Shown: positions 6,985 to 64,000, counted from the first letter of the stretch. The stretch is DNA of 64,000 nucleotides from Candidatus Yanofskybacteria bacterium (GCA_016181175.1 JACOZV010000004.1:7718-71717), one strand, 5' to 3'. Numbers and translations: made by a program. Notes: a model not told the origin generated them from the sequence alone.

Positions 6985-7003
6985 AGTTAAAATTGATAGC
7001 CTA

Positions 7004-7903
7004 CTATCTGAATCTTTTGTTATTTTTTATTAATTTTTTTGCTCTTCGTATTAACCGTGTTAAAAATGAAAAAAATAAAATAACCAAAAAAGTCGGCGTG
7101 CCAATTGCCAAATATGCAAATCCGTGGGGGACGAATTTCTCAATTCTTGCAAGCCCTACTTTATCCACGGCTTTTATCTCTATTATACTAAACGGATACA
7201 AATGCCGCAAAACATAAGGACTGTCTGCTTCACGCCACTGACCAAACAAACCAAGAGTTTTTTCCTTAACTTCATAGTGGCTAATGCCACTTCCCTTGTC
7301 TTGGGCTGAAAAAACGGCAACTCTGGCGCCATCAAATAAATTCTCGTTTTTGGTTATGAGTATCTCAAACTTTTCGGGCGCATAAAAATCCACAATTCGT
7401 GTTTTGATTATCTCTTGGTCGCCAGCTTCAAGAATATTAACAGCCGCTATCCCCGTGGTAACCGGCGCCTCCTGGCCTCCATCTTGGTGCAAATAAACCT
7501 TAAAATCTTCGAAAAATATCCGAGCTTCTCCTGTTTTCTTGGCCAAAAATGATAAATCAATAATTTTATCTTCCTTATCAGTGGTTGGTCCCTCTCCTCC
7601 GGGTATAATACCTGAAAATTTAATTGTATCTTTTCCGATTAAGGCTGGCCTATCAACCCATAAATTTATCAGCGAATTGGCATCAGAAAAATCTTTATAT
7701 TCAAGCAGGTTTGGGTCAAATTTGATTTTACTTTCTATGGCATTTATAAATTCTTCCGGATTTATCAGAACCTTAACTGAAAAAATCTGACCGGCCTCAA
7801 TTTCGCCCGGGATAGAAAAATATAATTTGGCCGCCGAGGCAAAATTAGAGAATAGTAAGTAGAAAGTAGAAAGTAGTAAAAAAATTAAATATTTTTTAAA
7901 CAT
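7004..7903 (-). CDS. Cohesin-domain protein with signal peptide and C-terminal membrane anchor
   Basis: The N-terminal signal is followed by KLYFSIPGEIEAGQIFSVKVLINPEEFINAIESKIKFDPNLLEY, a cohesin-like pattern. The C-terminus has the hydrophobic helix YLAIGTPTFLVILFFSFL and a basic tail. Confidence 0.6.
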   Translation of the reverse strand: MFKKYLIFLLLSTFYLLFSNFASAAKLYFSIPGEIEAGQIFSVKVLINPEEFINAIESKIKFDPNLLEYKDFSDANSLINLWVDRPALIGKDTIKFSGIIPGGEGPTTDKEDKIIDLSFLAKKTGEARIFFEDFKVYLHQDGGQEAPVTTGIAAVNILEAGDQEIIKTRIVDFYAPEKFEILITKNENLFDGARVAVFSAQDKGSGISHYEVKEKTLGLFGQWREADSPYVLRHLYPFSIIEIKAVDKVGLARIEKFVPHGFAYLAIGTPTFLVILFFSFLTRLIRRAKKLIKNNKRFR

Positions 7904-40598: not shown

Positions 40599-40799
40599 CT
40601 ACTTGTTGATGTCTCTGTGTATCTCTTCTTGAACCTCAGATAGACGGGCTTTGTAAAGCGGAGCAATTTCTCCGAGTTCTTGGCAATATCCTGGCTCCTG
40701 GAGTTCCATGAGCATATTGCTCACAGCTACTCGAATTGCCATCGATTGAGCCTCATTTAACTTGGTACTACCAATCATGATTGTCGCTTCTTTTGACAT
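40599..40799 (-). CDS. Hypothetical 66-aa protein
   Basis: ORF with a GGGAGG Shine-Dalgarno sequence 6 nt upstream and a canonical promoter. No recognised motif. Confidence 0.5.
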   Translation of the reverse strand: MSKEATIMIGSTKLNEAQSMAIRVAVSNMLMELQEPGYCQELGEIAPLYKARLSEVQEEIHRDINK

Positions 40800-40820
40800 G
40801 CGTTACCTCCCATTAAAAAA

Positions 40821-40849
40821 ATATACCACTTTTGTGGTATATTGTCAAA
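40821..40849 (-). promoter_or_regulatory. Consensus-like sigma70 promoter with an embedded 9-bp-arm palindrome
   Basis: Minus strand reads TTGACA, a 17-nt spacer, then TATATT. The spacer and -10 contain ATATACCAC-AAAA-GTGGTATAT (40822-40843). Confidence 0.55.
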
Positions 40850-41039
40850 CAATGCTCGCTTGGGTGGATAGTTTCAGGAACTATAATTGGCGCAAGGCTC
40901 TACCGTGTCCGGATGTAACAATTAAGCATTCAAAATACTTGTTGTCTTTGATTTGACTTGTACTGAGCTTGTCGAAGTAATCCTCTCCCGACATTTCGGG
41001 TAAGGTTCAGAAAAGTGAAAAGTAAACCGTCAACCATAA

Positions 41040-49080: not shown

Positions 49081-50559
49081 TTACATTACCAACTTCCTAT
49101 ATGCCCCATCTAAAAAAGTGTCTATTGCTCTGATCTGATTATCTCTCCTTAAATCGAGGAGTGTTTTTATATCATCGTCGTCAAGCGCGATGATAAAACC
49201 TCGATCGTCGGACGCTGTATCTTTGCATCGTTGAATGAAGCGCGTCTTGTTGGTAAAACTCCTGCATATTAACAATCCGAATCTGCCACGATTAGTAGAA
49301 AACCTACCGGACAACTGGTCGAGTTCGGGGTTAGCCGGATCAGATGAGTAATTCTTACACTCAACAAAAATATAGCTTGATGGTACTCGCTTGTTCTGCG
49401 GTAATTCCCAAAAGAACCCTTTTTTTGCAGCGTTTTCGAAAACGATATCAACTTTCTTTCTCCTTTCATGTAGCGGCTGCTCCTTTTTCGGATTTATAAG
49501 AAACGGATAAAAAATGGCAGTGAGCGCCCCTTGAATATGGTTATGGAAATTGTCTGCGTCAGCATCACCAGTATCTATACGATCCAGTTCTGCTTTTAGA
49601 GCATCGAAGTCAAAAGCTGGGCGTGCACCTATAGCATCAATGTCTTCGTTACTAATTTCTTCGAGATTGTACTGTTTACTGTCGCGATATCGTCGCAAAA
49701 CTTCCGGATGATCTTTCGAAAAAGTGTAAAGAAATTGCTTCGAATGAGGGTGAAGTTCTTTGAGTGCCTTTTTTGTAGGCGGTCTACGCGTTCCATCTTT
49801 AAGCACCCTCACAAGGGCAGAGTTCGCGCTTAAATGCTCTTCCTGTAAAAAGTTTAGTACGAAATGCTGATAGTATTCCTGATGGCTAAACTCCAAACTA
49901 AAACGCGCAACTGCTTTAGGGACAAGTAAAACATTTCTATCATTACACACCGGAAGATTAACATACTCATTAGTCCATTCATTACGAACCGTATTCCAAA
50001 CAGTGCCGCTTGGTACGTTGTGCATTGTAATACCCCAAAATATACATTCGTTTTGGGTGTACTCGATTAACTTTCCGCGAATAATGTTAGTGGTCATGTC
50101 AGATATCTTGTCATGGCTGATGCCTTCGATAAGAAGTTCGCACTCTTCAAGATCTTTAAGAAACCCAGTTCTTACAGCCGAGCTTTCAGCCAACGCATCA
50201 TATAAATCGTTCGCCTGATCTCCTCCTACACCCCTACCTCTCGGGGATCCTCCAACAGACAAACCAAAACGAGTTTGATTCGGCTCTCGCAATCCTGAAA
50301 GCATGTATTTTGCGTCATCCTTTCTATCGGCTCTGATCAAGTCGATAACTCTTTGAAAAAAATTAACGATCTGATTGTGGCAATCGATTGACCACCTATC
50401 ATTCCGCTTTGAAAGAGCATAAGGATCAATAAACAAAGGAATATCCCCATTATTTATGGGAACATCGACAAAATCGAGTTCGTACTGGCTTTTACCAAGT
50501 CGGAAGTTCTCCGAAAAGGTTTCGTATCTTCTTGGTTGTTGTGTTCTTTGTCTTGGCAT
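49081..50559 (-). CDS. 492-aa protein: unknown N-terminal ~330 aa plus a C-terminal PD-(D/E)xK (Mrr/Shedu-like) nuclease core
   Basis: The C-terminal ...KVDIVFEN...SYIFVECKNYSSDPANPELDQLSGRF...GLLICRS fits the D...(D/E)xK restriction-endonuclease-fold motif order. I do not recognise the N-terminal region. Confidence 0.55.
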   Translation of the reverse strand: MPRQRTQQPRRYETFSENFRLGKSQYELDFVDVPINNGDIPLFIDPYALSKRNDRWSIDCHNQIVNFFQRVIDLIRADRKDDAKYMLSGLREPNQTRFGLSVGGSPRGRGVGGDQANDLYDALAESSAVRTGFLKDLEECELLIEGISHDKISDMTTNIIRGKLIEYTQNECIFWGITMHNVPSGTVWNTVRNEWTNEYVNLPVCNDRNVLLVPKAVARFSLEFSHQEYYQHFVLNFLQEEHLSANSALVRVLKDGTRRPPTKKALKELHPHSKQFLYTFSKDHPEVLRRYRDSKQYNLEEISNEDIDAIGARPAFDFDALKAELDRIDTGDADADNFHNHIQGALTAIFYPFLINPKKEQPLHERRKKVDIVFENAAKKGFFWELPQNKRVPSSYIFVECKNYSSDPANPELDQLSGRFSTNRGRFGLLICRSFTNKTRFIQRCKDTASDDRGFIIALDDDDIKTLLDLRRDNQIRAIDTFLDGAYRKLVM

Positions 50560-50567
50560 GGTTCATG

Positions 50568-52250
50568 CTATTTGATCAATTTCTTATTCCAGCCCTTTGA
50601 TTTGATGAACTTGAGCGTGCCTTCGATTTCGGCTTTCCTAAACTTGTTTGGTTTCCATGCTTGAATCTTGTCATTGATCGTTGTGAGATCGTCGCTTTTT
50701 GCATCCTGCACAACCTTGCAGACGGTTGCCAAGCACTCAATTTGAGCGCTGGTGGAGTTTTTAATTGCCGGCATAAGATCATTAAGGACGGACTCCATGT
50801 TGCTCAAGATTTTTGAGTTGTATTTGAAGAGTTTACCGGAGTTAGCGCCTAAACCATAGACGCCGTTTTTTTGCTGAAAGAAGCCATTGCGAGGACTTGC
50901 GCCGGCGGTGATGGCTTTCTTAATCTGTAGATCGTAGGGGCCGAAGTTCTGCGAGGTAAAGCTGAAGCCGAGCGGTACCCTGTAAACTTCCTGCGCGAGA
51001 TATAAGAGCTTCGCCACAACCATTTCACCACGTTCAAAACGTTGCAACACCGCTCCGATGGCTTGCCACACCGGAAAGACACTTGCTTTGACAGGAACAG
51101 CAGCCACGCCCTCTTTTACCAACTCACCAGCAAGCGCTTTTGACAAGGCGGAATCAAAAAGTTCCTTCAGCTTCTCTTTTTGAACGAGAAGTCCTTTTTT
51201 ATACTCTTTAATAGCACTAAACCTCTCGGCAATGGCATGCTGGTCTGTCGTTGGTGGTACCATGATTTTTATTTTTTTAAGTGCGGTAGAGTTTACTGCG
51301 GCTTGATTTACCCACGGCGTGCATAGATAACGAAATCTATCGGTTGAATATAAGTATTGAAGATATATAGAGAAGTAGCGCGGATCTAATACTTTTTCGT
51401 TTGTGCGAATCCGAGTGATGTGATTTGAAAAGACATACTTGTAATCCTTGTCTATGTAAACGCTTTTTCCAACTAAACTAATACTGTTTGTATTATTAAA
51501 TAGGACATCACCACTCTTCAGGAAATAAGTTTCCGCATGTGGGTAATCCTGTGGAATATACTTGATGCTATCAAAGTTCAAACTACCGTCATCGCCGATA
51601 TTATTAGGTCTGATTTGTCCAATACCCTTCCCAACCGGACGGAAGGCAAAACCATTCGTAACATCGACTACTAACGCACCGATCTTTTCTTCCTTCCAGC
51701 TTTTTGACGATGATCCAAAAATCTTATTCAAAAGCGACTGAAAAAGCTGATCTGTTTTTTCAATAAGCGCATCATTGAGTTTTTGGGCTTCGCGGATAGA
51801 ATCAACACGTTCTGCAATTGCTTGTTGGGTATTTAAAGACGGCATTGGTACTCGTAAATTTTCAAGGAAGGTTCTATTCAAATGTGGTACTGCCGCTCCT
51901 TGCGCTGCTGATCTAATTTTTTGCTGATTAAATTGCAAAAGGTAAGCAAGGTATCGACTTTCCAGTGTTTCGTTATGAACCACTTTAGCAATCGTGGAAC
52001 CAACAAATCCTCTTAAACCGATACCAACGGTGCCGGCATAAGCACCATCCCAAACCAATAAAACATCGTCATTGTCGCATCGAACTCCGTTATTTTCTGA
52101 AGTGTAAAGCGTATATTGACCACTTCTTAAATTTTCAATGCCAATATAAGGCAAGGTGTCCTTTGCGGCTTCTGCTGCGGAAATCATCATTTTACCTTTC
52201 GCAAAAGAAATAAGTTCGCCTAATTTTTTTGTTTGATAATTACTTTGCAT
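50568..52250 (-). CDS. hsdS: Type I restriction-modification specificity subunit HsdS with a ~180-aa C-terminal Panacea/DUF4065 (SocA-like) extension
   Basis: Two target-recognition-domain halves are separated by conserved helices (..AIAERVDSIREAQKLNDALIEKTDQLFQSLLNKIF.. and ..AIAERFSAIKEYKKGLLVQKEKLKELFDSALSKAL). They are followed by ...VVAKLLYLAQEVYRVPLGFSFTSQNFGPYD..., which resembles the KLxKLLYxAQ...GPV core of DUF4065. Confidence 0.7.
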   Translation of the reverse strand: MQSNYQTKKLGELISFAKGKMMISAAEAAKDTLPYIGIENLRSGQYTLYTSENNGVRCDNDDVLLVWDGAYAGTVGIGLRGFVGSTIAKVVHNETLESRYLAYLLQFNQQKIRSAAQGAAVPHLNRTFLENLRVPMPSLNTQQAIAERVDSIREAQKLNDALIEKTDQLFQSLLNKIFGSSSKSWKEEKIGALVVDVTNGFAFRPVGKGIGQIRPNNIGDDGSLNFDSIKYIPQDYPHAETYFLKSGDVLFNNTNSISLVGKSVYIDKDYKYVFSNHITRIRTNEKVLDPRYFSIYLQYLYSTDRFRYLCTPWVNQAAVNSTALKKIKIMVPPTTDQHAIAERFSAIKEYKKGLLVQKEKLKELFDSALSKALAGELVKEGVAAVPVKASVFPVWQAIGAVLQRFERGEMVVAKLLYLAQEVYRVPLGFSFTSQNFGPYDLQIKKAITAGASPRNGFFQQKNGVYGLGANSGKLFKYNSKILSNMESVLNDLMPAIKNSTSAQIECLATVCKVVQDAKSDDLTTINDKIQAWKPNKFRKAEIEGTLKFIKSKGWNKKLIK

Positions 52251-52869
52251 AAGAATGCGCAGAGTATTGAATTCTACCTACGCGGTTTAATAAGCGCGTA
52301 TCCCGAACTTTTAAGTTTTCACCATCTTTATCGAATGGCCTTATTTCTGCTTTCCAAATAGATCTACAAAAAACAGTGTTCTGATCATTCATATATGTAA
52401 TTTCTAAACATACTGGTATCGCAAATTCAGCCATTTCATACCATTCTCTAAAATTTTTTATGAGTTGAAGTTTGATTCTAAATGACTCATCCTCTGTGGT
52501 CTGATAGAGGGGCACCTTATGATATCTTTCTTCTGCGATGGGCATACCGGTCGCTTTGGGTTGGGAGATATTAAAAGCCGATCCGCGACCAGAATTGAAA
52601 CAGTCAAACTCTATGGAAAAAACTATTTCAAAATGATTCGCATCAGCACGGATTATGCTTCCGGCATCCATCACACCATATCCATGCTCTACTTCACTAT
52701 GTCTAACCCCAACCCATATTCTTAATGGACGCAAAATTAAGCTGGGTACTGTACTTAATGCAGAATTCCAATCTGCTTTTCTGATAGCTTTTATCGAAAT
52801 CCACAGTGAAACAACTGCGGTTATCCCGACTAAAATATCTGCCGTTTTAGAAATTATTTCAAAATTCAT
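52240..52869 (-). CDS. 209-aa single-pass membrane protein inserted between hsdM and hsdS
   Basis: N-terminal TM helix (ADILVGITAVVSLWISIKAI) and a beta-rich soluble domain. It starts 6 nt after the hsdM stop and overlaps the hsdS start by 11 nt. No recognised family. Confidence 0.55.
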   Translation of the reverse strand: MNFEIISKTADILVGITAVVSLWISIKAIRKADWNSALSTVPSLILRPLRIWVGVRHSEVEHGYGVMDAGSIIRADANHFEIVFSIEFDCFNSGRGSAFNISQPKATGMPIAEERYHKVPLYQTTEDESFRIKLQLIKNFREWYEMAEFAIPVCLEITYMNDQNTVFCRSIWKAEIRPFDKDGENLKVRDTRLLNRVGRIQYSAHSYAK

Positions 52870-52875
52870 AATCTT

Positions 52876-54405
52876 TTATCCCAGTTTATCTGTCATCTCT
52901 TCTTGTAATTTTGTTAGATCTTTATTGATTTTCTCAATTTCTTTCAAAATAATTTTTGGCTCGCGGTGTTTTATCTCTTCTCCGATAGCATATGGGTTAT
53001 AAGTGTTTGCAGAAAGTATGTAATCATTTTCGATGATTTCTTTAACTGGCGTAAACCATGCAAGCTGTTTTTCAACTGCGCGGTTTTTATGCCAGAGTTC
53101 CAACAGCTTCGGAATATCATTTCTATATTGGCTGCCGAATTTTTTGGATGCTGAAAGCGATGAACCATCACCTTGCATATCAAAGAACCATACCTTTGCA
53201 GATTCATCGAGTTTCGGCACCGCCTTTTTTTTGAACACCAAGAAGGACGTTTTTACGCCGGCATACGGCTGAAACACGCCTGCCGGCATGGAAACAACCG
53301 CCTGTAAGTCCGTATTTTCAAGTAGAAAACGGCGGATCTCTTTATCATCGCGGTTGGTACCAAAAAATGAACCTTCGGGAAGGATTATGCCGGCTCTGCC
53401 ATTGGGCTTGAGCGAGTTTATAACATGACCCAAAAATAGAACCTGTGTTTTGGTTGATTTGACCGGCAAGGTTGGTTTTATACGTTCCCGATCAACCTTT
53501 CCAGAGAATGGTGGATTTGTAAGGACAATATCGAATGTGCGCAGATCATCCTCATCTTCAGATCCAGCAACCGTGTCTTTGCGCTTAATGTTCGCACTCT
53601 CTATGCCATGTAATATCAAATTCATAAGTGCTAACCGCACCATCTCCGGATCAACATCAGAACCCAAAAAGGTTTTTTTGGTTAGAAATTCCCACTGTTT
53701 TTTATCGAGCTTATCTCCAAACCCCCTCTTGTGTCCATTTTCCTCTTCAATGCTTTTGGGATCGCTATTTCTTAATCGGATCCAATCATAGCCGGAGATG
53801 AGGAAGCCACCAGAACCACACGCAGGATCATAAACAGTTTCGCCAATTTTTGGATTCACCATTTCAACTATGACGCGAACGATATGACGCGGAGTGAGAA
53901 ATTGTCCAAGTTCGCCGGCTGATTCAATACTTGCAAGCAGCTCTTCATAAAGATCGCCCTTAACATCTGTGTCTAATCCTGTTAAATTGATCGTGTCAAT
54001 AATTTCAATCGTGTTTTTTAATGTAACAGAATGGGGAATTTCGAGCTTCGCATCATAAAAAATTTGCCGTATGTTAGAGTGTCCATTTTGCAATCGCTCC
54101 ACAAAGGGAAATACCTCATCACGAACAATTTTATACAATTCATCGCCAGCTTTTTCTTTCCAGCGCGACCATCGGAATTTTTCGTTTTTGCCCTCGAAAA
54201 TTGATTTATGTTTACGCCCAGTAAGTTCTTCGCCTCTCTCCATAGAAATATCCTGTTCCTCAAGCATTTTCAAAAAAAACAAAAAGCTAATCTGCTGGAT
54301 CCTTCTCACAGGGTCTCGTAAACCTGCACCCCAAAGATAATCGTTCAGGCGATCTAATTTTTGGCGAAACTCTATTCTTAATTGTTGTATTTTTTGTTCG
54401 GGCAT
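52876..54405 (-). CDS. hsdM: Type I restriction-modification N6-adenine DNA methyltransferase subunit
   Basis: HsdM N-terminal domain, AdoMet motif VYDPACGSGGFL and catalytic LTNPPF. Confidence 0.9.
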   Translation of the reverse strand: MPEQKIQQLRIEFRQKLDRLNDYLWGAGLRDPVRRIQQISFLFFLKMLEEQDISMERGEELTGRKHKSIFEGKNEKFRWSRWKEKAGDELYKIVRDEVFPFVERLQNGHSNIRQIFYDAKLEIPHSVTLKNTIEIIDTINLTGLDTDVKGDLYEELLASIESAGELGQFLTPRHIVRVIVEMVNPKIGETVYDPACGSGGFLISGYDWIRLRNSDPKSIEEENGHKRGFGDKLDKKQWEFLTKKTFLGSDVDPEMVRLALMNLILHGIESANIKRKDTVAGSEDEDDLRTFDIVLTNPPFSGKVDRERIKPTLPVKSTKTQVLFLGHVINSLKPNGRAGIILPEGSFFGTNRDDKEIRRFLLENTDLQAVVSMPAGVFQPYAGVKTSFLVFKKKAVPKLDESAKVWFFDMQGDGSSLSASKKFGSQYRNDIPKLLELWHKNRAVEKQLAWFTPVKEIIENDYILSANTYNPYAIGEEIKHREPKIILKEIEKINKDLTKLQEEMTDKLG

Positions 54406-54407
54406 AG

Positions 54408-56663
54408 TTATCGTGTACAGATCCTTTGGTTAAGCTCCGAGAGAGCGGATTGTAAAACACCTTCCTCAAACACTCGCAACGCATAATTAAGACCACCGAT
54501 TTGCCGGAAGATCGGCTCGTTGAATATGGAAATATCAACCGGCTCTTTGCGAACGATACATTGCGACTTTACCAAACGCAGGATTTTTATTTGATCGGAT
54601 GCAAAGTTTTTCTCGATTAGCCATGATTCAAAAAGCTGATTTACACGCTGCTCATGTAGTTGCTCTTCTGTAGGGAACTCCTTTGTTTTGAGTGCTGCTT
54701 GTATGAAGTCATTGAGCGTGCCTACCGGATAGCGATATGCTTCTCGCAAGTTTGCTTCGTTAAAATAGAACTCCGGAGAATTAAGTTTTTCGGAAAGGAA
54801 GGCGGTTTCGTCATTTGAAAGATCTTCGCCTTGTTTAACTTTTGAAATAAGCGGCTCGGTTTTAGCCATCTCTTGAACTTGCTGCTCCCATGCCACCTGA
54901 TAATCATCGGCATCAATTCTTTCGCCTTCTGCTCCAACTTCGATATGCGCACGCTGCATAACCACGTCCATGTTTTCGGGTGCTGTTTCCGGCACTTGAA
55001 CAAAAAGTCGCTTCACCACTTCTTCCTCTTCCTGCGTTAAATCTTCAGCTTCGGTTCCCCACGGAATACCAGCTTTAATTTTTGCATAGGCAGAATACGG
55101 ATCAAATCCTTCGTCATTGAAGTAACGAGTAACGCCAGCAAAGTCATAAATACGAAAAGATGTTTTGCTGATTTTTTGATATAATCGGCTGCCACGTCCT
55201 CGCATCTGTTGGTAAAGGATCGGGGAACGTGTAGGACGCGCCATGATCAAGTTTTCTACCATTGGGACATCGATGCCGGTATCCATCATACCCACCGAAA
55301 CCGCTACCATCGGCATTTCTTGGTGCTTAAAACGTCTTATGGCTCCACGAGGATCTTCGGTATCGGAAGTAATAACTTCAGCGTATCTTCCCTTATATTC
55401 CGGATATGTCTGATTGAGATAATACGCCAATTGCGCAGCGTGTTTTTTCGTAACAGCATAAAGAATGGTTTTGCGATGGTGTTTTGGTTCATGCTTTTCT
55501 TCTTCCTCTCTGAATGTTTTTGCCAATTGCTCGTTTCTTGCCGGCACATTGATTTTTCTCTCCAAATCTTCGGCGTTGTAATCTTCACCCTCAAATTGCA
55601 CACCTTCTAAAGACACTTTGGTGTCGATCTGTAAGATCTCATAACCAGCAAGAAATCCCTCTTTGATGCCTCGTCGAATACTGTATAGAAATGTCGGTTT
55701 ACCCTTTTTTTCACGCTCATCCCAACAACCAAAGAGCTTATAGGTGTTACGATCAATAAACACACTCGGCGTTGCTGTAAGACCTATCCGGATTGCGTCA
55801 AAATGCGATAGGACAGCGTTGTAGATGCCGAAGATGGATCTATGTGCTTCGTCCGAGATAACCACATCAAAATAACCACTTGTAAAATTCGATAGTTGCG
55901 AATAAAGAGTGGGAAGTGTCGAGATGATTATTGAGGATTCGTCTTTTTGCTTGCCTCCGTAAAGAAGCTTTGTAGGATAATCTTTCAAAATTTCATCAAA
56001 AACTTCCTTTGTTTGTATGCCTAAATCAATGCGATCAACAAGAAATAAAACACGCCGGATGAGATTCGCTTCAAACAGCCGTTTGAGATAAAGAGCTATG
56101 GTATCTGTCTTGCCAGTGCCGGTTGCCATAGCGATGAGCATTTTGCGCAAACCGCCCTCAATGGTTTTGTCCATGATCTGCATGGCCTCCTTTTGATATG
56201 GGCGTGGTGTGCGTAATTCGCCACCTTTAAAATAATTGTCGGGTACAGGAATGGCGGTTATCGGCTTTTGATCTATTCGTAGGGTTTGGATTTTTTCTAA
56301 ATCGCGTTGAGAAAAGAAGGTAATTACCTTTTGCTCTGGACGATATTTGTAATCCCAAAAATAAATATCCTCTCCATTGGAAAGGAAAATGAAATCGATA
56401 CCCAGCTCTTCTGCGTAGGTCAATGCCTGCTGTTTTGCCAATACTGGTTCAGTTGAAAACCGCTTTGCTTCGATAAGCCCGATGGCTCTGCCGCGTCTAT
56501 CCCTCAAGAAATAATCGGCACGTCCATCCTTCACCGGATCTTCGGTTGAAACTTGATTTTTATCCTCAATATCCCAGCCAGCTTCGCGGAGTTTGCGATC
56601 GATGACAATGCGAGCGTCCGTTTCTCTTGAGTTGTTATTGTTATTTGTCATATTCATTTTCAT
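54408..56663 (-). CDS. hsdR: Type I restriction enzyme R subunit (nuclease plus SF2 helicase)
   Basis: N-terminal PD-(D/E)xK (ADYFL...IGLIEAKR), Walker A MATGTGKT, DEAH (ISDEAHRS) and later helicase motifs. 2-nt gap to hsdM. Confidence 0.85.
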   Translation of the reverse strand: MKMNMTNNNNNSRETDARIVIDRKLREAGWDIEDKNQVSTEDPVKDGRADYFLRDRRGRAIGLIEAKRFSTEPVLAKQQALTYAEELGIDFIFLSNGEDIYFWDYKYRPEQKVITFFSQRDLEKIQTLRIDQKPITAIPVPDNYFKGGELRTPRPYQKEAMQIMDKTIEGGLRKMLIAMATGTGKTDTIALYLKRLFEANLIRRVLFLVDRIDLGIQTKEVFDEILKDYPTKLLYGGKQKDESSIIISTLPTLYSQLSNFTSGYFDVVISDEAHRSIFGIYNAVLSHFDAIRIGLTATPSVFIDRNTYKLFGCWDEREKKGKPTFLYSIRRGIKEGFLAGYEILQIDTKVSLEGVQFEGEDYNAEDLERKINVPARNEQLAKTFREEEEKHEPKHHRKTILYAVTKKHAAQLAYYLNQTYPEYKGRYAEVITSDTEDPRGAIRRFKHQEMPMVAVSVGMMDTGIDVPMVENLIMARPTRSPILYQQMRGRGSRLYQKISKTSFRIYDFAGVTRYFNDEGFDPYSAYAKIKAGIPWGTEAEDLTQEEEEVVKRLFVQVPETAPENMDVVMQRAHIEVGAEGERIDADDYQVAWEQQVQEMAKTEPLISKVKQGEDLSNDETAFLSEKLNSPEFYFNEANLREAYRYPVGTLNDFIQAALKTKEFPTEEQLHEQRVNQLFESWLIEKNFASDQIKILRLVKSQCIVRKEPVDISIFNEPIFRQIGGLNYALRVFEEGVLQSALSELNQRICTR

Positions 56664-56676
56664 TCTTGAGCTTGAT

Positions 56677-58476
56677 CTATAAATTCTCGTAATACCCCCT
56701 GATCTTTTTCGCCATGAGTTTGCGGCGTTCCTTCAAAAACCTTTCGTAATCCCCAAGCTCCATATTCTGAAAGCCATCCGGTATGCAATTCTGTTTTAGG
56801 TTCTCGGCGAGATCTTTTTTATCGGTTATGCCGCCATACTTGAGCTTGCCTCCTTCGGTTTGTTTCATTACTTCAGCCATGTACTCTTTGGGAGATTTTT
56901 TGCCGACTTTGATATTTATTTCAGATTGAGCATAAGTAAAGTTGCCAATCTGGTTGTAATCGCCCCTACTTAAGCCGCCTGCTTTCTTCAGGTATTCCTT
57001 TGGAAAGAGATGATGGATGTCGCCGCGATGACTGATCATATTACCAACGGTAATGTCGGTTGAAAGAAAGCCCCTGTCGTTATTTTTAACCTGTGCCGCA
57101 AAAAAAAGATTGAGAAATGGATTGCTGATGCTCGCCTTATCGAGTTCCTGAATAAGCTGCGCGTTCCAAAAAGCATCGGAGAGTTGCGCTTCTTCGATTG
57201 ATTTCAAAATCTCGCCAGCATCGCCATTGGAAATCTGCTTAATATCCGAATCAAATTGGCTTTCCGGTGATCCGGAATAACGTCCGGTGAGGATAGACAT
57301 CACAAACCAGCGTTGGACATACTTTTCGATCAAGCTTGGATCGACACTCTTATCGCGCAGCTTGAGATATAAAATATAGGCAAAGTTAAGAGCGTTTTGC
57401 GAATTGATAAGGTCGTTGCTTATAAAGCCGCAGGATTTGATGATCATTACAAACCGCTTGAAGTTTGTTTCATTTACAAAATCCAGTACCGCATCACGGA
57501 GTTTTTGGAAAGACGCATCCATTATGTCTTGCTCAAAACTGCGTGTTTCAAAGTTACGCCCCGAAAGCAGTCCGACAAGATCCGCCATCTTGCCTCGTTC
57601 AAATTGTTTGGTGAAACTCACACGCAACACATCGGAATAATCCGGATCGTAGAGGTCGTCATTTTCATCTTTAAGCCATGCAAGTTTTGAAAGGTAAACA
57701 GTTTTGTTAAACTCTGCATCATTTTCAGTTATGTGTTTGTAAAACTGCGGCTCGCGCGCAAGATGGCAAAAATAGTCGACACACTTTCTTAAATTAACGC
57801 CGAAATTATCCTCCTTGTCATAAGAAGCTATCTTCGACATGGCAAAGTCAGCTTGGCTTAATACAACACCTTTGGAATTGATACGGATAAAAATCTCGGT
57901 AACCGTTTCAATATCTAAACCGGCATCAAGTTCAATAAAACCAACCTGCTTGCTTTTGATCTGTAATAACTTCTCAATGTTCTTTTCAATGAGTTCACGA
58001 TTTACGTCAAGATTTTTGTCGCAATAGTCAGTTACATCTTTGAATAAGCCGCCGTCCTTACTCATAAGTTTTGAGATGTCAGCTATCCACGCCTTGTCCT
58101 TTTTTATTGCCGGTGTGAGTGTGGCAAATTCTTCTATGATGGGGTGAAATGCAATATAGATCCGTTCCTCCTTATAATCTTTATTGATAATGTTTTGACC
58201 GAGAATTGCCGCACGGAGAGCGGTAATGCGTTGCTGTCCGTCAATCAAGACCTTTTTGCCGTTGGAAATGGAGCCATCTTTAAGACGAACATCGGGGTTT
58301 TTCCATGCAATGATATAGCCGATCGGATAGCCACGATAAAGCGAATCCATCAGATCGCGCACCTTTGTCGAATCCCAAACAAACGGACGCTGGATTTCCG
58401 GTATAGCGATTTCCTTTTCCTGAACCCAATTCAGGATATTGCTCACAAAGTATTGATTGACTGTGTATTTTTGCAT
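56677..58476 (-). CDS. GmrSD/BrxU-like type IV restriction enzyme (DUF262 plus DUF1524)
   Basis: IPEIQRPFVW and LIDGQQRITAL (DUF262/ParB-like NTPase). The C-terminal His-Me finger context is GDIHHLFPKEYL (DUF1524). Start taken at MQKYTVNQ. Confidence 0.8.
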   Translation of the reverse strand: MQKYTVNQYFVSNILNWVQEKEIAIPEIQRPFVWDSTKVRDLMDSLYRGYPIGYIIAWKNPDVRLKDGSISNGKKVLIDGQQRITALRAAILGQNIINKDYKEERIYIAFHPIIEEFATLTPAIKKDKAWIADISKLMSKDGGLFKDVTDYCDKNLDVNRELIEKNIEKLLQIKSKQVGFIELDAGLDIETVTEIFIRINSKGVVLSQADFAMSKIASYDKEDNFGVNLRKCVDYFCHLAREPQFYKHITENDAEFNKTVYLSKLAWLKDENDDLYDPDYSDVLRVSFTKQFERGKMADLVGLLSGRNFETRSFEQDIMDASFQKLRDAVLDFVNETNFKRFVMIIKSCGFISNDLINSQNALNFAYILYLKLRDKSVDPSLIEKYVQRWFVMSILTGRYSGSPESQFDSDIKQISNGDAGEILKSIEEAQLSDAFWNAQLIQELDKASISNPFLNLFFAAQVKNNDRGFLSTDITVGNMISHRGDIHHLFPKEYLKKAGGLSRGDYNQIGNFTYAQSEINIKVGKKSPKEYMAEVMKQTEGGKLKYGGITDKKDLAENLKQNCIPDGFQNMELGDYERFLKERRKLMAKKIRGYYENL

Positions 58477-58477
58477 A

Positions 58478-58666
58478 TTACTTTTTTGGTTTCTTGATAT
58501 TCGATCGAGAACGAATAAACGCCTCGAGATCGCTCTCGCTGATCCGCCAATAGCCGACTTTGGTCGCCTTGAGCCGCCCACTCGAAATATAGCGATACAA
58601 GGATCGCTCGCTAACTCGCAAATACTTTGCCGCTTCACGTAATGTAAGAAATTTCTTTTTGGTCAT
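58478..58666 (-). CDS. Excisionase-family (MerR-like) helix-turn-helix DNA-binding protein
   Basis: FLTLREAAKYLRVSERSLYRYISSGRLKATKVGYWRISESDLEAFI is the classic HTH_17/Xis pattern. Its stop abuts the GmrSD-like start. Confidence 0.75.
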   Translation of the reverse strand: MTKKKFLTLREAAKYLRVSERSLYRYISSGRLKATKVGYWRISESDLEAFIRSRSNIKKPKK

Positions 58667-58681
58667 AGGTCAATTGATTTC

Positions 58682-58717
58682 ATTCTATCGCAAAAAAGCC
58701 ACATGGTCAAATGTGGC
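58682..58717 (-). promoter_or_regulatory. Sigma70-type promoter of the defence operon with an overlapping palindromic operator
   Basis: Minus strand reads TTGACC (58710-58705), a 17-nt spacer, then TAGAAT (58687-58682). The palindrome GCCACAT-N6-ATGTGGC (58698-58717) covers the -35. Confidence 0.5.
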
Positions 58718-58747
58718 AAAGTCGGTTATCTTCCTAAAAGGCAGGTG

Positions 58748-59098
58748 TTAGCAGGGGTAACCATTTGGACAAATATCTTCCTGTCGTTCGGTCGTCGGAT
58801 CAATAGGGGTGTTTAAGTCCGGCACGGTATGGTTGCGTGCCATCAACCACCAAACGAGAAGTATCCAAAATCCCCAAAATAAAACTACTGGAACAACTTT
58901 TGAGATGTTTTTCTTTACTCTGATTTTCAACGGAGGGTGAAGTACATGTTTAAGCTCATGGCTTGCTAAATCGCCGTACTCGATTTTCTCCACACACTTT
59001 GGACACGCAACAAATTCTTTCTGCTGCTCGGAAAAGCGCTTGTTTACTCTTGCCCAGAACCCCTCGTCAATAAATGGATTTCTATTTTTTCCGCTCAT
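58748..59098 (-). CDS. Hypothetical protein with a C2H2-like zinc knuckle and a C-terminal TM helix
   Basis: CPKCVEKIEYGDLASHELKH followed by VVPVVLFWGFWILLVWWLM. Start taken at MSGKN. Confidence 0.4.
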   Translation of the reverse strand: MSGKNRNPFIDEGFWARVNKRFSEQQKEFVACPKCVEKIEYGDLASHELKHVLHPPLKIRVKKNISKVVPVVLFWGFWILLVWWLMARNHTVPDLNTPIDPTTERQEDICPNGYPC

Positions 59099-59371
59099 AG
59101 TTTTGTGAGCGGCGAGTTTTGAAACACAAAACCCACCACTGGGAGGGCTTGCGCCCCTATGGAAGTTTCCCTCCATAACGTTAGGCACGCCCCAAATGAT
59201 GGGTTTTCTATGCCTAACGATTTGCGACCATGCCGCCAGCCGAAGCCGATGGTTTAGATCATTTGATATCCAATTGTGTTTTTAAGTATATCAGAAAAAC
59301 ATGAGATCCTGCAACGGATGAAAAATACTGCTGGTCAAATGTGGCAAGGTCTGCTAAAATGAGTTTTAAGA

Positions 59372-60299: not shown

Positions 60300-60554
60300 A
60301 TGCTTAAACCATCGGCAATTGAAGAATTAAGGTCGATATTGCTCGAAGAGTTTGGGCGTGATGTTGATATTAAAACAGCCAGAACGATCGGCGAGGATTT
60401 AGTCGGCTTCTACGACACTCTCGCAAAGATCGCGCATAAGGATAAAACGATAAGCAAAAATCTTTCCCCTTGCTCGGGTTCCATAGTGGACTATCCACTT
60501 GCAATGAGTAGTTCATTGAAAAAGAGGGTGGAACCCGAACAAAGAGAAAGATAA
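60300..60554 (+). CDS. Hypothetical 84-aa protein
   Basis: ORF 1 nt after the upstream stop. No motif recognised. Confidence 0.4.
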   Translation: MLKPSAIEELRSILLEEFGRDVDIKTARTIGEDLVGFYDTLAKIAHKDKTISKNLSPCSGSIVDYPLAMSSSLKKRVEPEQRER

Positions 60555-60565
60555 AAAAAGAAATT

Positions 60566-62125
60566 ATGAAAAACATTTTTAGTGGTAACCACAAAAAAGG
60601 AAAGGTGTCCGACAAACTGAAGGGCGCGGAATTGGTTTTAGATGTGATCGAAAAAAGCGACTTATGGCTCTTTCACGATCAATTAAACGAGGCATACGCC
60701 GTTATAGCTGGTGATGGAGCATCAATAATGAAAATCGACTCGCAAAAGTTCCACAACTGGCTTTTTAATCATATCTATGACGAAACCGGAAAGATCAGCA
60801 ACACAGCCGCGTGCGAGGCAGCCATAAAGGTTCTGAAACATCAAGCAGAAACTGGGAATCTATTTGAGCTTGGAGTTAGGGTAAAACTGCGTGAGGGCGG
60901 TATTTGGTACGATCTCGGCGGTCAAAACTTTGTGAGTATCGCAGAAGATGGATGGTTGGTAACTGATCCTCCGCAACCAATCCTCTTTAAGAGGTTCGGG
61001 CATCAAAAAGAGCAGGTGCGACCGGAACGCGAGGGTAGCATGAATGAGTTTATGGAGCTTATTAACCTACAAGACAAAAAAGAATCTTTGCTCCTCATGG
61101 TTTACTTGGTTGCATCGTTTATTCCTAACTTTCCTCATCCTGTATTGATTGTGCATGGTTCGCAGGGGGCTGCTAAAAGTACCGCATGTAAATTGATTAA
61201 AGAATTAGTGGATCCATCTGCATTAGAAACTTCGACTATAAACGACGATAAAGACATAAAAGAATTGGTACAAGCCGCATCGCATCATTGGCTGTTAGTT
61301 CTCGATAATATCTCCTATATCTCCGAGAAAATCTCGGACACGATCTCACGAATATGTACCGGAGGCGGATTATCTAAAAGAATACATTATAGCAATGACG
61401 ACGACTTCATTTACAACTTTATGCACATAGTCGCCATTAACGGAATCCATCAGATCGTAAGCAAGCCCGATCTCCTCGATCGATCAATCTTGTTGGCGCT
61501 TGAACGCATCCCTGAAGATAAAAGGATAACGGAGGAGCAACTTTGGGGTCGTTTCAATGCAATGAAAGGAAGAGTTCTCGGCGCGGTTTTCGATGCCGTA
61601 TCCGGAGCATTGCGTGAATATCCGAATGTGCAGTTAGCAACATTGCCACGAATGGCGGACTTTGCACGCTGGGGATGCGCTATTGCGAGGACGCTCGGCT
61701 ACACCGACGAGGACTTTATGAATGTATACAAAACGAATATCGGAAGGCAGAACCAAGAGGCGCTTTCAGCAAGCGCCACAGCAGCAGTCATCATCAAGCT
61801 CATGGAAGATAATGATGTTTTCGAAGATACACCATCTGCTCTTTTGCGACTAATGGATCCGATAGCCGACGATCTCAAGGTAAAAGAAGCGAAGGATTAT
61901 CCACGACAGGCAAACTGGCTTTGGAGGCGCATTGAAGCGGTTATACCGAACCTTGCTGACGCCGGCATAAAGGTCGAGCAAACGAAAGATACTGAACGGA
62001 AGATAAAAATATCAAAGATATTGCGCGGTGATGACAGCACTGAAATTATGCCGTCTTCCGAAAAACCAGCAGAAGAACCTGCAAAAGACAGCATCGACAG
62101 CATAGACGGCACTTTCCCCCTGTAG
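60566..62125 (+). CDS. P-loop NTPase, SF3-helicase/VirE-like replication protein of mobile elements
   Basis: Walker A HGSQGAAKST and Walker B-like HHWLLVLDNIS. Its size and position are typical of plasmid or integrative-element replication helicases. Confidence 0.5.
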   Translation: MKNIFSGNHKKGKVSDKLKGAELVLDVIEKSDLWLFHDQLNEAYAVIAGDGASIMKIDSQKFHNWLFNHIYDETGKISNTAACEAAIKVLKHQAETGNLFELGVRVKLREGGIWYDLGGQNFVSIAEDGWLVTDPPQPILFKRFGHQKEQVRPEREGSMNEFMELINLQDKKESLLLMVYLVASFIPNFPHPVLIVHGSQGAAKSTACKLIKELVDPSALETSTINDDKDIKELVQAASHHWLLVLDNISYISEKISDTISRICTGGGLSKRIHYSNDDDFIYNFMHIVAINGIHQIVSKPDLLDRSILLALERIPEDKRITEEQLWGRFNAMKGRVLGAVFDAVSGALREYPNVQLATLPRMADFARWGCAIARTLGYTDEDFMNVYKTNIGRQNQEALSASATAAVIIKLMEDNDVFEDTPSALLRLMDPIADDLKVKEAKDYPRQANWLWRRIEAVIPNLADAGIKVEQTKDTERKIKISKILRGDDSTEIMPSSEKPAEEPAKDSIDSIDGTFPL

Positions 62126-62190
62126 GTTTTGGGGTTGTAGGGGTAAATAAAGAAATAGGAATTGCTGTCTGTGTTGTCGGTAAAAAAACT

Positions 62191-62418
62191 ATGAAGAATC
62201 GAACCGAACAATTTAGAGCATGGCGAAGGCGCAATCCGGCGGCATGGAACGCTATTGTAAAGCGCTGCAAGCGCAAGGGGCGCGCGCTCAAGCTACAGTG
62301 GGTTATAAACGAGTATTCGCGCTGGCAGAAGTGGTGTGCAGCGCATCCAGCACAACACCGTAAAATAGCACGCGATTCTTACCACAGAAGAAAAACAAAT
62401 AAGATCAGGGATGCTTGA
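62191..62418 (+). CDS. Hypothetical 75-aa basic protein
   Basis: Arg/Lys/Trp-rich ORF with no motif recognised. Confidence 0.35.
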   Translation: MKNRTEQFRAWRRRNPAAWNAIVKRCKRKGRALKLQWVINEYSRWQKWCAAHPAQHRKIARDSYHRRKTNKIRDA

Positions 62419-62690
62419 GTTGTATTCATTGTCAGATTTTTATCTGGCAGCAAGCTGGGTTGTATTCGTTGTCAAAGTGTACATGGATATAACTACAGTA
62501 GTAATGTGCGCATAAAAGATGGGGTTGAACAGGAGTGCGTGTCGTATTGTCAAGCTTCGAAGCAAGTATTGCACGCAAAGAAAAGATGGCTTGATTGAAA
62601 ACGTGTATTTGTTTGTCAAGCCCCGAAGAGAAAAACAAGGAAAAAAGTAAACATTGTATCGACAATGTATTGATAGTATAATGGCAATGT
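62417..62690 (+). repeat. Iteron-like array: 4-5 direct copies of ~GTTGTATTCGTTGTCAA
   Basis: gagttgtattcattgtcag (62417), gggttgtattcgttgtcaa (62457), gtgtcgtattgtcaag (62539), gtgtatttgtttgtcaag (62603) and a palindromic variant attgtatcgacaatgtattga (62653). Confidence 0.6.
62654..62682 (+). promoter_or_regulatory. Candidate promoter of the recombinase gene
   Basis: TTGTAT, a 17-nt spacer, then TATAAT. It overlaps the last iteron-like copy. Confidence 0.4.
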
Positions 62691-62691
62691 A

Positions 62692-62808
62692 CCCCCAGTT
62701 GCACTACAATCCGTGATTTTTTATTGGCTTCTGCCCTTAAGGGGGGCGGTGCCGGAAGCCAATCCTCACGGAAAAAGCGACTGGGGTACCACCGCTCCCT
62801 TTAAGTTT
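62692..62808 (+). promoter_or_regulatory. Highly structured 5' leader of the serine recombinase gene (nested stems plus a long-range pairing onto the start-codon region)
   Basis: P1 is 62693-62699 with 62780-62786, P2 is 62711-62716 with 62766-62771, and P3 is 62723-62731 with 62755-62763. Also, 62742-62751 (gggggcggtg) is complementary to 62790-62799 (caccgctccc), 10 nt before the ATG. Confidence 0.4.
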
Positions 62809-64000
62809 ATGAAAAACGAACAAAATACAACTAAAAATAAGGCGATTTCCTTTTGCCGCGTAAGCTCGAAGGAGCAAGCCGATGAGGGTTATTCGCTTGA
62901 ATCGCAGGAAAAGCTACTTGAGGCATACGCTACAGACGATAAACGAGATTTTAAGATCATCAAGATCTATAAGATCACGGAATCAGCGAGCGGAAAGCAG
63001 GTACGAAAGACATTTCAGGAAGCACTGAAATACGCCACTGATCAAAAAATAAAGATCATTCTGTGTGAAAAGATTGATCGATTAACACGCAACCTTAAAG
63101 ACGCCAGCACAATTGACGATTGGGTAAAGGATAAAGACACTACCGGTCGGCAGGTTCACTTTGTAAAGGAAAACTTTATTCTTAACGCTGATACAAAGGC
63201 ACACGATAACCTTGTGTGGGATATGAAGGTGGCTATTGCGCGTTTCTATTCAAACAATCTATCCGAAGAAGTGAAGAAGGGGCAAAAGGAAAAGATCGCG
63301 CAAGGATGGCTTCCTACGAAGCCGCCGCTTGGGTATCGCACGATCGGCGACAAAGGGCATAAAACGCACGAAATTGACGAGAAGATCGCCCCATATATCC
63401 GTAAGATGTTTGAGCTTTACGCTACCGGTAATTACTCAACGCTTTCTTTGGTAAGGGTTATGTACAAGGAAGGTTTGCGCAACCGCGAGGGTAAAAGGGT
63501 TGGAAAGAGTAGATTGCATCAATTGCTTTCGGATCCATTTTATTACGGCAAGATGCGATGGAAAGGCGAGGTTGTTAAAGCAGAACACGAACCCCTTATT
63601 CCGAAAGAATTGTTTGACGACGTTCAAAAAATACTTGTCCGGAAGATCAAATATCCCATGTATAGGAAACACCTCCCTATATTTAAGGCGATGCTGCGCT
63701 GCGGAGAGTGCAAAGGCACTGTTACGTGGGAAATACAAAAAAATCATTGGTACGCTCACTGTAGCCATTACCGAAACTGCAAGCAAAAAAAGTATGTCCG
63801 GCAGGAAGCTGTCGAAGAACAGCTTTTCCCATACTTTGATCGAGTTGCCCCGATAAACACGCGCTTGCTGCAGTGGCTTGAGAAGCAGCTTAAAGAAAGC
63901 CACACCGAAGAGATCAAATACAACACCTCAAAGCGAGAGGAGTTAAACCGGATCATCGCAACCGCCGATAGACGGATCGAGGCGGCGTATAAAGAGAAGC
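62809..64000 (+). CDS. Large serine recombinase (partial, continues past the window)
   Basis: Hand translation gives MKNEQNTTKNKAISFCRVSSKEQADEGYSLESQ... (catalytic Ser in RVSS), ...DRLTRN, a recombinase domain (GWLPTKPPLGYR) and a zinc-ribbon CGECKG...HC...C. There is no stop before 64000, which is why it is absent from the ORF track. Confidence 0.85.
   Translation, partial: MKNEQNTTKNKAISFCRVSSKEQADEGYSLESQEKLLEAYATDDKRDFKIIKIYKITESASGKQVRKTFQEALKYATDQKIKIILCEKIDRLTRNLKDASTIDDWVKDKDTTGRQVHFVKENFILNADTKAHDNLVWDMKVAIARFYSNNLSEEVKKGQKEKIAQGWLPTKPPLGYRTIGDKGHKTHEIDEKIAPYIRKMFELYATGNYSTLSLVRVMYKEGLRNREGKRVGKSRLHQLLSDPFYYGKMRWKGEVVKAEHEPLIPKELFDDVQKILVRKIKYPMYRKHLPIFKAMLRCGECKGTVTWEIQKNHWYAHCSHYRNCKQKKYVRQEAVEEQLFPYFDRVAPINTRLLQWLEKQLKESHTEEIKYNTSKREELNRIIATADRRIEAAYKEK

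Follow-up and report, generated by a model that had tools for sequence, protein, structure and literature searches.

A candidate replication origin and an apparently undescribed leader RNA between the replication and recombinase modules of an integrative element from Candidatus Yanofskybacteria

The replication origins of the Staphylococcus aureus pathogenicity islands (SaPIs) lie immediately downstream of rep and contain 6-12 penta- or hexanucleotide repeats, which are recognised by the C-terminal winged-helix domain of Rep, a self-loading helicase of superfamily 3 (SF3) or superfamily 6 (SF6) (PMC9371898). By definition, an AT-rich region occupies the centre of such an origin and is flanked on either side by two or more repeats, their orientation being opposite on the two sides (PMC9371898). 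Here we describe a partly comparable arrangement in a 64-kb stretch of DNA from a Candidatus Yanofskybacteria bacterium (GCA_016181175.1, JACOZV010000004.1:7718-71717), which we call the window and to whose positions all coordinates refer unless a related locus is named. Near its right end, the segment 62419-62690 is the noncoding end of a replication module joined to the start of a recombinase module, and it belongs to an integrative element. We tentatively read the short repeats in this segment as a replication origin of the type used by SaPIs and related phage-inducible chromosomal islands (PICIs), in which protein binding and origin function would follow by analogy. The repeats, if they are such an origin, are best read as extending a known type, and the structured leader RNA that follows them as apparently undescribed.

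The gene order rightward from 58.4 kb is an HTH_17 gene coupled to GmrSD, a LOOT RNA, a 165-aa open reading frame (ORF), a DUF5659 protein, an 84-aa ORF, a 519-aa P-loop protein, a 75-aa basic protein, the repeat-bearing intergenic region and the gene for a large serine recombinase (LSR). The features on which the argument turns are as follows, the repeats and the AT-rich stretch being given with their sequences.

60566-62125, plus strand: 519-aa SF3 helicase, a candidate Rep-like initiator-helicase, with a C-terminal winged-helix-like domain at about residues 404-485
62191-62418, plus strand: basic protein of 75 aa, encoded by the final rep-operon gene; 107-116-aa Zn-ribbon proteins of related elements are homologous to it in their C-terminal half
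62419-62435, plus strand: repeat c1, GTTGTATTCATTGTCAG (TTGTAT + TTGTCA)
62459-62475, plus strand: repeat c2, GTTGTATTCGTTGTCAA
62539-62562, plus strand: degenerate repeat c3, GTGTCGTATTGTCAAGCTTCGAAG
62603-62628, plus strand: degenerate repeat c4, GTGTATTTGTTTGTCAAGCCCCGAAG
62628-62652, no strand: A-tract and AT-rich stretch, GAGAAAAACAAGGAAAAAAGTAAAC
62652-62667, no strand: c5, imperfect 6+4+6 palindrome CATTGT-ATCG-ACAATG, overlapping a -35 hexamer and its spacer
62654-62682, plus strand: promoter of the leader RNA and recombinase, TTGTAT (62654-62659) - N17 - TATAAT (62677-62682), with a predicted transcription start near 62689
62689-62806, plus strand: structured leader RNA of 118 nt, matching covariance model R2 at 80 bits
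62809-64000, plus strand: LSR gene, cut by the window end, with the Pfam domains Resolvase, Recombinase and Zn_ribbon_recom and a match to PHROG 95 (integrase)

The family of the 519-aa protein was resolved by structure prediction alone, as sequence searches of Pfam, PHROGs, NCBIfam and the PDB returned no useful family. Many of its 1098 homologs are fused to PrimPol, PriCT, Toprim or RepB-primase domains, and those on small plasmids and one phage are annotated there as helicase or primase. An AlphaFold2 model made with 50 homologs (pLDDT 84.7, pTM 0.81) was nearest, among all PDB chains compared with Foldseek, to the SaPI5 primase-helicase PriRep5 (7OLA; E 2.9e-10, TM 0.51/0.59, 470 aligned columns). 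The next matches were NrS-1, African swine fever virus PrimPol, monkeypox virus E5 and SaPI1 PriRep1, all of them SF3 replicative helicases. Because the model is confident and its best PDB matches belong to this superfamily, the label 'SF3-like' given in a preliminary description of the locus is confirmed, as is the placement of the repeats downstream of this protein and a small basic one. Residues 404-484 of the model run helix-strand-helix-helix-strand-strand, which is the winged-helix topology as far as the order of secondary-structure elements goes, so that the protein resembles a SaPI Rep in its fold and also at its C terminus. Identity to the solved helicases is only 11-14%.

On the proposed reading, the short same-strand repeats, with the core TTGTC/TTGTA and the best copies GTTGTATTCRTTGTCA, would be recognition sites of the 519-aa initiator-helicase. 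The origin would comprise these repeats, the adjacent A/T-rich stretch 62628-62668 and one inverted copy at 62661-62665; using its C-terminal winged-helix domain to bind the repeats, the helicase would open the A/T-rich segment and load itself, so that the excised circular element could replicate. The likeness to SaPIs and PICIs extends in part to the layout. The repeats directly follow the rep operon, starting 1 nt past its last stop codon (the TGA of the 75-aa ORF at 62416-62418) and 294 nt past that of the helicase gene, and are followed by an AT-rich segment with at least one opposite-orientation copy beyond it. GC content falls to 27.5% in 62629-62668, compared with 42% in the whole window, and the A-tract stretch is a candidate for a DNA-unwinding segment, a promoter UP element or both. 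Like these islands, the element is integrative and has its own recombinase, although here the integrase is an LSR and the hosts of related elements are bacteria of the candidate phyla radiation (CPR) type and other uncultured bacteria (Nomurabacteria, Wolfebacteria, Saccharibacteria, Omnitrophota). In L003, the closest helicase relative (75% identity), the basic protein is replaced by an ORF at 6863-7013 that resembles a phage small terminase subunit (TerS), which hints that the lineage includes phage-satellite-like elements.

The copies are of unequal quality. Repeats c1 and c2 lie 40 nt apart and are identical at 15 of 17 positions between unrelated flanks. By contrast, what c3 and c4 have in common with c1/c2 is limited to the TTGTCA(A) core and a GT-rich flank on its 5' side, and the fit requires indels; with each other these two share a separate 16-nt stretch, TTGTCAAGCYYCGAAG (14/16). 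The palindrome c5 carries the only inverted copy of the core, GACAA at 62661-62665, and is better explained as part of the leader RNA promoter. Thus, where the preliminary description counted four to five copies of a motif of about 16 nt, its coordinates are essentially right and two copies are near-identical, while two were counted generously and the fifth is a different object. The strict core TTGTC(A) occurs four times. With the relaxed core TTGT[AC], which was picked post hoc, there are seven same-strand copies and one or two inverted ones, the second opposite-orientation pentamer being TACAA at 62705-62709, inside the leader RNA. A basic 43-aa ORF (62519-62650, plus strand) carries c3 and c4 in one frame (IVKLRS / FVKPRR); having neither a ribosome-binding site nor homologs, it is probably not a gene. 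We also considered TTGTCAA as a -35 box and rejected it, since no suitable -10 box lies downstream of any copy on either strand.

The evidence that the cluster exceeds chance is moderate. The match of c1 to c2 (13/14) was equalled in 7 of 1000 dinucleotide shuffles, and all three occurrences of the pattern GTATT-N1-5-TTGTCA in the 64-kb window fall within the repeat region. Seven TTGT[AC] pentamers in 245 nt form the densest such cluster of the window on either strand. The c1/c2 match and the pentamer density, together with the sharp end of c1/c2 similarity at the motif edges, which points to selection on the motif and not to a decaying duplication, speak against a rather unlikely alternative, namely that the segment has no sequence-specific function and is simply the junction of a recombinase-module swap, its GT-rich, low-information repeats having clustered by chance or slippage. 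Other results favour that alternative. Besides the need for indels in c3 and c4, the hexamer found four times in 274 nt places the region in only the top 3% or so of windows, and hexamer and heptamer recurrence in the top 3-4%. The strict 14-nt pattern, with up to two mismatches, was not enriched window-wide (15 found, 10.4 expected), and a weight matrix from seven sites did not discriminate, matching equally well elsewhere in the window. The only other place in the window with at least four TTGTC within 210 nt (40771-40990, at 40.8 kb) owes one of its copies to the -35 box of an ordinary promoter on the minus strand. A search of viral contigs for the exact motif GTTGTATTCNTTGTCA gave matches in more than 120 contigs, one in each, which we regard as chance and not as arrays.

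We compared the helicase relatives L003, L004, L005 and L212-L216 (47-75% identity) and, on the recombinase side, 86 loci with related LSRs. A gene stands at the position of the 75-aa protein in L004, L005, L212, L213, L214 and L216 as well; the protein itself has no Pfam, PHROG or NCBIfam match and is 37% identical to its L004 counterpart over 70 aa (tblastn). In L004, L005 and L212, whose helicases are 63-74% identical to that of the window, one ATTGTCAA(G/A) site lies 10-25 nt past the stop codon of the homologous basic protein, as TACATTGTCAAAG in L004 and ATGTTTATTGTCAAGC in L005 and L212. The rest of the intergenic DNA there cannot be aligned to the window, and preservation of the core at the same position despite such flanks is a further argument against a segment with no function. 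As these three relatives carry a different LSR module, in the order small ORF, HTH_17 and LSR, the motif travels with the helicase module and not with the recombinase. A decayed remnant of that small ORF and HTH_17 gene, which occupy the corresponding space in the three relatives, was considered for the window and rejected, because the repeat region shows no similarity to them.

Several observations weigh against an origin. In about 95 related loci, blastn and tblastx searches with 62380-62700 found no homologous intergenic sequence, which also favours the view that the region has no specific function, and no relative has a repeat array. The three relatives with a conserved site have one forward and one to four reverse pentamers over 250-380 nt, a mild enrichment only, and the distant helicase relatives L213 and L216 have no intergenic room at this position. 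Unlike in SaPIs and PICIs, the helicase gene is separated from the repeats by the 75-aa gene, the two orientations are very unequally represented (six or seven copies against one or two), and the AT-rich part, which can equally be a promoter UP element, occupies the right end instead of the centre. The start-to-start distances of TTGTCA (40, 78 and 66 nt) are irregular and show no helical regularity, no DnaA box (TTWTNCACA) occurs in 62100-62900, and, allowing for the post hoc choice of motif, the repeat statistics are suggestive rather than overwhelming. An origin for an excised circle, as first proposed from the repeats, is thus helped by the likeness of the helicase to SaPI Rep, the position after the rep operon and the site kept in three relatives, and weakened by the irregular spacing and by the lack of an array elsewhere. 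The same comparison divides the expectation that the motif would recur in related elements: a single site does, at the same position in three of them, and the array in none.

The preliminary description had also offered a repressor or recombination-directionality binding array controlling the recombinase, and had noted that the last copy was a palindromic variant over TTGTAT-N17-TATAAT; this sequence is indeed present (62652-62667 over 62654-62682). On this reading, the ATTGTC/GACAAT sites would be targets of a repressor or activator that the element itself encodes; candidates include the 75-aa basic protein, the DUF5659 protein and the 84-aa protein. By acting on the promoter at 62654-62682, this regulator would set recombinase expression, and the upstream copies would allow cooperative binding or looping. 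We consider such an operator array unlikely, and less well supported than an origin. In its favour, the dyad CATTGT-N4-ACAATG does sit at the promoter, over the -35 hexamer and spacer. The HTH_17-recombinase promoter of L005 and L212 likewise has two GACAA(T/C) sites 12 nt apart over a TTGACA -35 box and spacer, with a forward ATTGTCAA about 250 nt upstream, and L033, from the recombinase lineage with the leader, has GACAAT about 11 nt upstream of the -10 box. However, TTGACA(AT) is the plain -35 consensus and, in L004, L005 and L212, also forms coding bases of the conserved small ORF. Most loci with this leader and promoter have no such sites, L033 being the only one that does, and none are found at the rep-operon promoter. 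The motif co-occurs with the helicase module and not with any one recombinase module.

Other known replicons share some features with the locus. The alpha primase-helicase of phage P4, a satellite-type element, binds short ori/crr repeats through a C-terminal DNA-binding domain, at sites of another sequence that are split between two loci, ori and crr. The 519-aa protein differs from it in having no primase domain. Plasmid iteron origins (RK2, F, pPS10 and the RepA_N plasmids) and the satellite PLE likewise have same-strand noncoding repeats beside replication genes with an A-rich tract nearby, the PLE and RepA_N repeats being described in PMC7145576. The window has no tandem 17-22-bp units at about 22-bp spacing, and its repeats are much shorter and more degenerate. 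A classical plasmid iteron origin was therefore rejected, with only two near-identical 17-mers at hand and spacings of 40, 78 and 66 nt, and searches of the neighbouring ORFs against Pfam, NCBIfam and PHROGs found no Rep-family match that would indicate a RepA-type winged-helix initiator.

Lastly, the repeats might act in RNA. Located in the 3' untranslated region of the rep-operon mRNA, they would, for example, pair with the beginning of the coding sequence in the recombinase mRNA or be bound by an RNA-binding protein, which we regard as very improbable. It is true that TTGAGTTGTATT (62415-62426) complements 11 of the 12 bases of AATACAACTAAA, a segment (62824-62835) where the recombinase ORF begins, and that c2 shows a weaker pairing. 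This complementarity is at chance level, because 14 inverted pairs of similar quality occur in the same 800 nt, and no terminator or stable structure was found in the repeat region.

Structure begins just beyond the repeats. The promoter at 62654-62682 was not called by a generic promoter scan because its -35 box matches at just 3 of 6 positions. Comparison with other loci supports it: in 29 of 34 homologous leaders the -10 box ends 5-7 nt upstream of helix P1, which places the start of the transcript at the base of P1. The leader folds into a rod of three helices, whose apical loop pairs with the 3' tail:

62689-62702/62777-62789, plus strand: helix P1
62710-62716/62766-62772, plus strand: helix P1b
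62724-62731/62755-62762, plus strand: helix P2
62736-62751/62790-62805, plus strand: 16-bp loop-tail helix, formed by the apical loop with the 3' tail; 3 nt separate its end from the start codon

Its minimum free energy is -48.8 kcal/mol (z -3.8). The same architecture, first seen by eye, recurs upstream of related LSR genes with wholly different helix sequences. Of the two covariance models that we built for it, R2 was used for the window and the LSR loci. In about 38 of the 86 LSR loci (about 40%), including the helicase relative L214, it finds the leader immediately before the LSR gene and in the same orientation, and simpler variants were recognised by eye in L007 and L016. A pattern search independent of the protein gave six matches in viral contigs, five of which were model-positive at 104-107 bits; four of these five have an LSR gene directly downstream, and two of the LSRs are just 26-27% identical to that of the window.

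The leader RNA is strongly supported by covariation. In an alignment of 25 sequences, 95.3% of the cells at paired positions hold standard pairs, compared with 65% in shuffles and 41-49% in slid controls, and both sides have changed in 41 of the 46 pairs. Every pair of P1, P1b and P2 covaries, and so does the loop-tail helix. G-U pairs are frequent (column 79 with 179, for instance, is G-U in 18 of 23 sequences), which assigns the structure to the LSR-sense strand. Rfam 15 gave no match, at E values up to 10, for the 431-nt region of the window, nor for the leader positions of eight relatives, and a full-text literature search found no description of such a leader RNA. We therefore regard it as apparently undescribed.

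Fold-back or long-range leaders that sequester the ribosome-binding site are found at transposase and toxin genes (IS10, IS200, hok) and at the MS2 maturation gene. The present RNA is likewise a structured 5' leader with a long-range helix over the ribosome-binding region, and differs in its architecture, a rod (P1, P1b, P2) with pairing between apical loop and 3' tail. The loop-tail helix ends at most 7 nt from the start codon in several relatives, so close to the AUG that it covers the ribosome-binding region; a Shine-Dalgarno sequence is absent. Such pairing would keep recombinase synthesis low. P2 probably cages the apical loop and thereby competes sterically with the repressing helix, because a helix of 16-19 bp cannot form fully inside the 22-27-nt loop closed by P2, which is itself much the weaker of the two. 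This suggests a leader that is two-state or kinetically controlled. Most subgroups have four or five U after the loop-tail helix, whose 38-60-nt loop contains the 3' strands of P2, P1b and P1, and the U run would allow termination in some of them. In the subgroup of the window the corresponding bases are UUUAAG and are themselves paired with covariation (columns 68-71 with 186-189), so that pairing and not the U run is the conserved property.

The leader could represent a class of RNA switches for LSR genes, licensing synthesis of the recombinase, and with it integration or excision, on a signal; we put this forward as a possibility about which we remain doubtful. In one state the caged loop would pair with the 3' tail and conceal the ribosome-binding region; in the other it would be kept from doing so. 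The cue might be a protein, a small molecule, folding kinetics or action in trans between related elements. The last of these was considered since each loop matches its own tail best (mean -26.7 kcal/mol, compared with -17.7 kcal/mol for foreign tails, in duplexes of 12-22 bp). The leader RNA might also serve the recombinase directly as a cofactor, though nothing supports this. A guide-RNA role is unlikely, as the variable segments all lie in covarying intramolecular pairs and no free guide loops are evident; a duplex search, uninformative in itself, found no consistent complementarity between the leader and the tRNA or attachment (att) regions. The position upstream of a recombinase gene recalls the bridge RNA of IS110. 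Nevertheless, we rejected an IS110 bridge or seek RNA, because the enzyme is an LSR with Resolvase, Recombinase and Zn_ribbon_recom domains instead of the IS110 DEDD domain, and the variable segments are paired.

The 84-aa ORF (60300-60554) has homologs that encode small helical proteins in close linkage with the leader RNA and recombinase of related loci, standing between the two in L075 and L080 and just upstream of the promoter of the RNA in L007-L009. Proteins of this type are candidates for a directionality factor or regulator. The Xis-like helix-turn-helix protein of the preliminary description is not a recombinase partner, to judge from its neighbour: the HTH_17 gene at 58478-58666 is directly coupled to a GmrSD-type restriction gene (pair 56677-58666, minus strand). 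The pair recurs in L004 (924-2910) at 90% and 83% identity, and L004 has a second HTH_17 beside its recombinase. Judged by this pairing, the window HTH_17 is probably part of a defence operon and not an excisionase.

The site of recombination probably lies outside the window. The 3' end of an LSR gene in this family overlaps a tRNA gene that is encoded on the other strand, as in the following examples:

L015 5543-5613, minus strand: tRNA-Gln
L048 2958-3028, minus strand: tRNA-Gln
L016 2278-2349, minus strand: tRNA
L008 7546-7596, minus strand: tRNA-Asn

Many metagenome contigs also break just past the recombinase gene, which together with the overlap points to integration into tRNA genes by a crossover where the recombinase gene ends, and would place the att site of the present element just beyond 64000. 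The repeat region was accordingly rejected as an attachment site, the replication module and the recombinase being contiguous. Two public Logan contigs are 100% identical to the window and end at 62668 and 62771; their ends show no divergence from it and hold no junction information. In L012, a group I intron match (5597-5936, minus strand; 44.7 bits, below the gathering score of 50) lies directly downstream of the recombinase, in the place taken by the tRNA gene in other loci.

Further features were noted to the left of the replication module. A LOOT RNA (RF03000; 59144-59260, minus strand; 71 bits, gathering score 46.4) may be the leader of a 142/146-aa ORF (58748-59188, minus strand), whose start its 3' part overlaps. 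An exact 15-nt repeat, GGTCAAATGTGGCAA, is present at 58705-58719 and 59333-59347 (plus strand), the first copy within a 7+6+7 palindrome, GCCACAT-GGTCAA-ATGTGGC. The copies lie 25-40 nt upstream of the starts of the HTH_17/GmrSD operon (minus strand) and the 165-aa ORF (plus strand), and look like operators of a second regulator. HsdM, HsdR and adjacent genes of type I restriction-modification, together with GmrSD, occupy 49081-58638 on the minus strand and directly adjoin the replication module on its left; this stretch is included in the identical public contig L001, and the genes are possibly defence cargo of the same element.

To our knowledge, the replication of mobile elements is essentially unstudied in Nomurabacteria, Wolfebacteria, Saccharibacteria and Omnitrophota. 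If the repeats are an origin, the element would be a SaPI/PICI-like self-replicating island with an SF3 initiator-helicase, an origin right after rep, and restriction-modification and GmrSD genes as cargo, and a concrete fragment of 270 bp and one protein would be open to testing. The leader RNA is the most novel and most testable item of this neighbourhood. Large serine recombinases are widely used in genome engineering, and we know of little work on how their expression is controlled in nature. A widespread, strongly covarying RNA directly upstream of many LSR genes would mean an added layer of regulation for these recombinases and a new RNA family for the databases.

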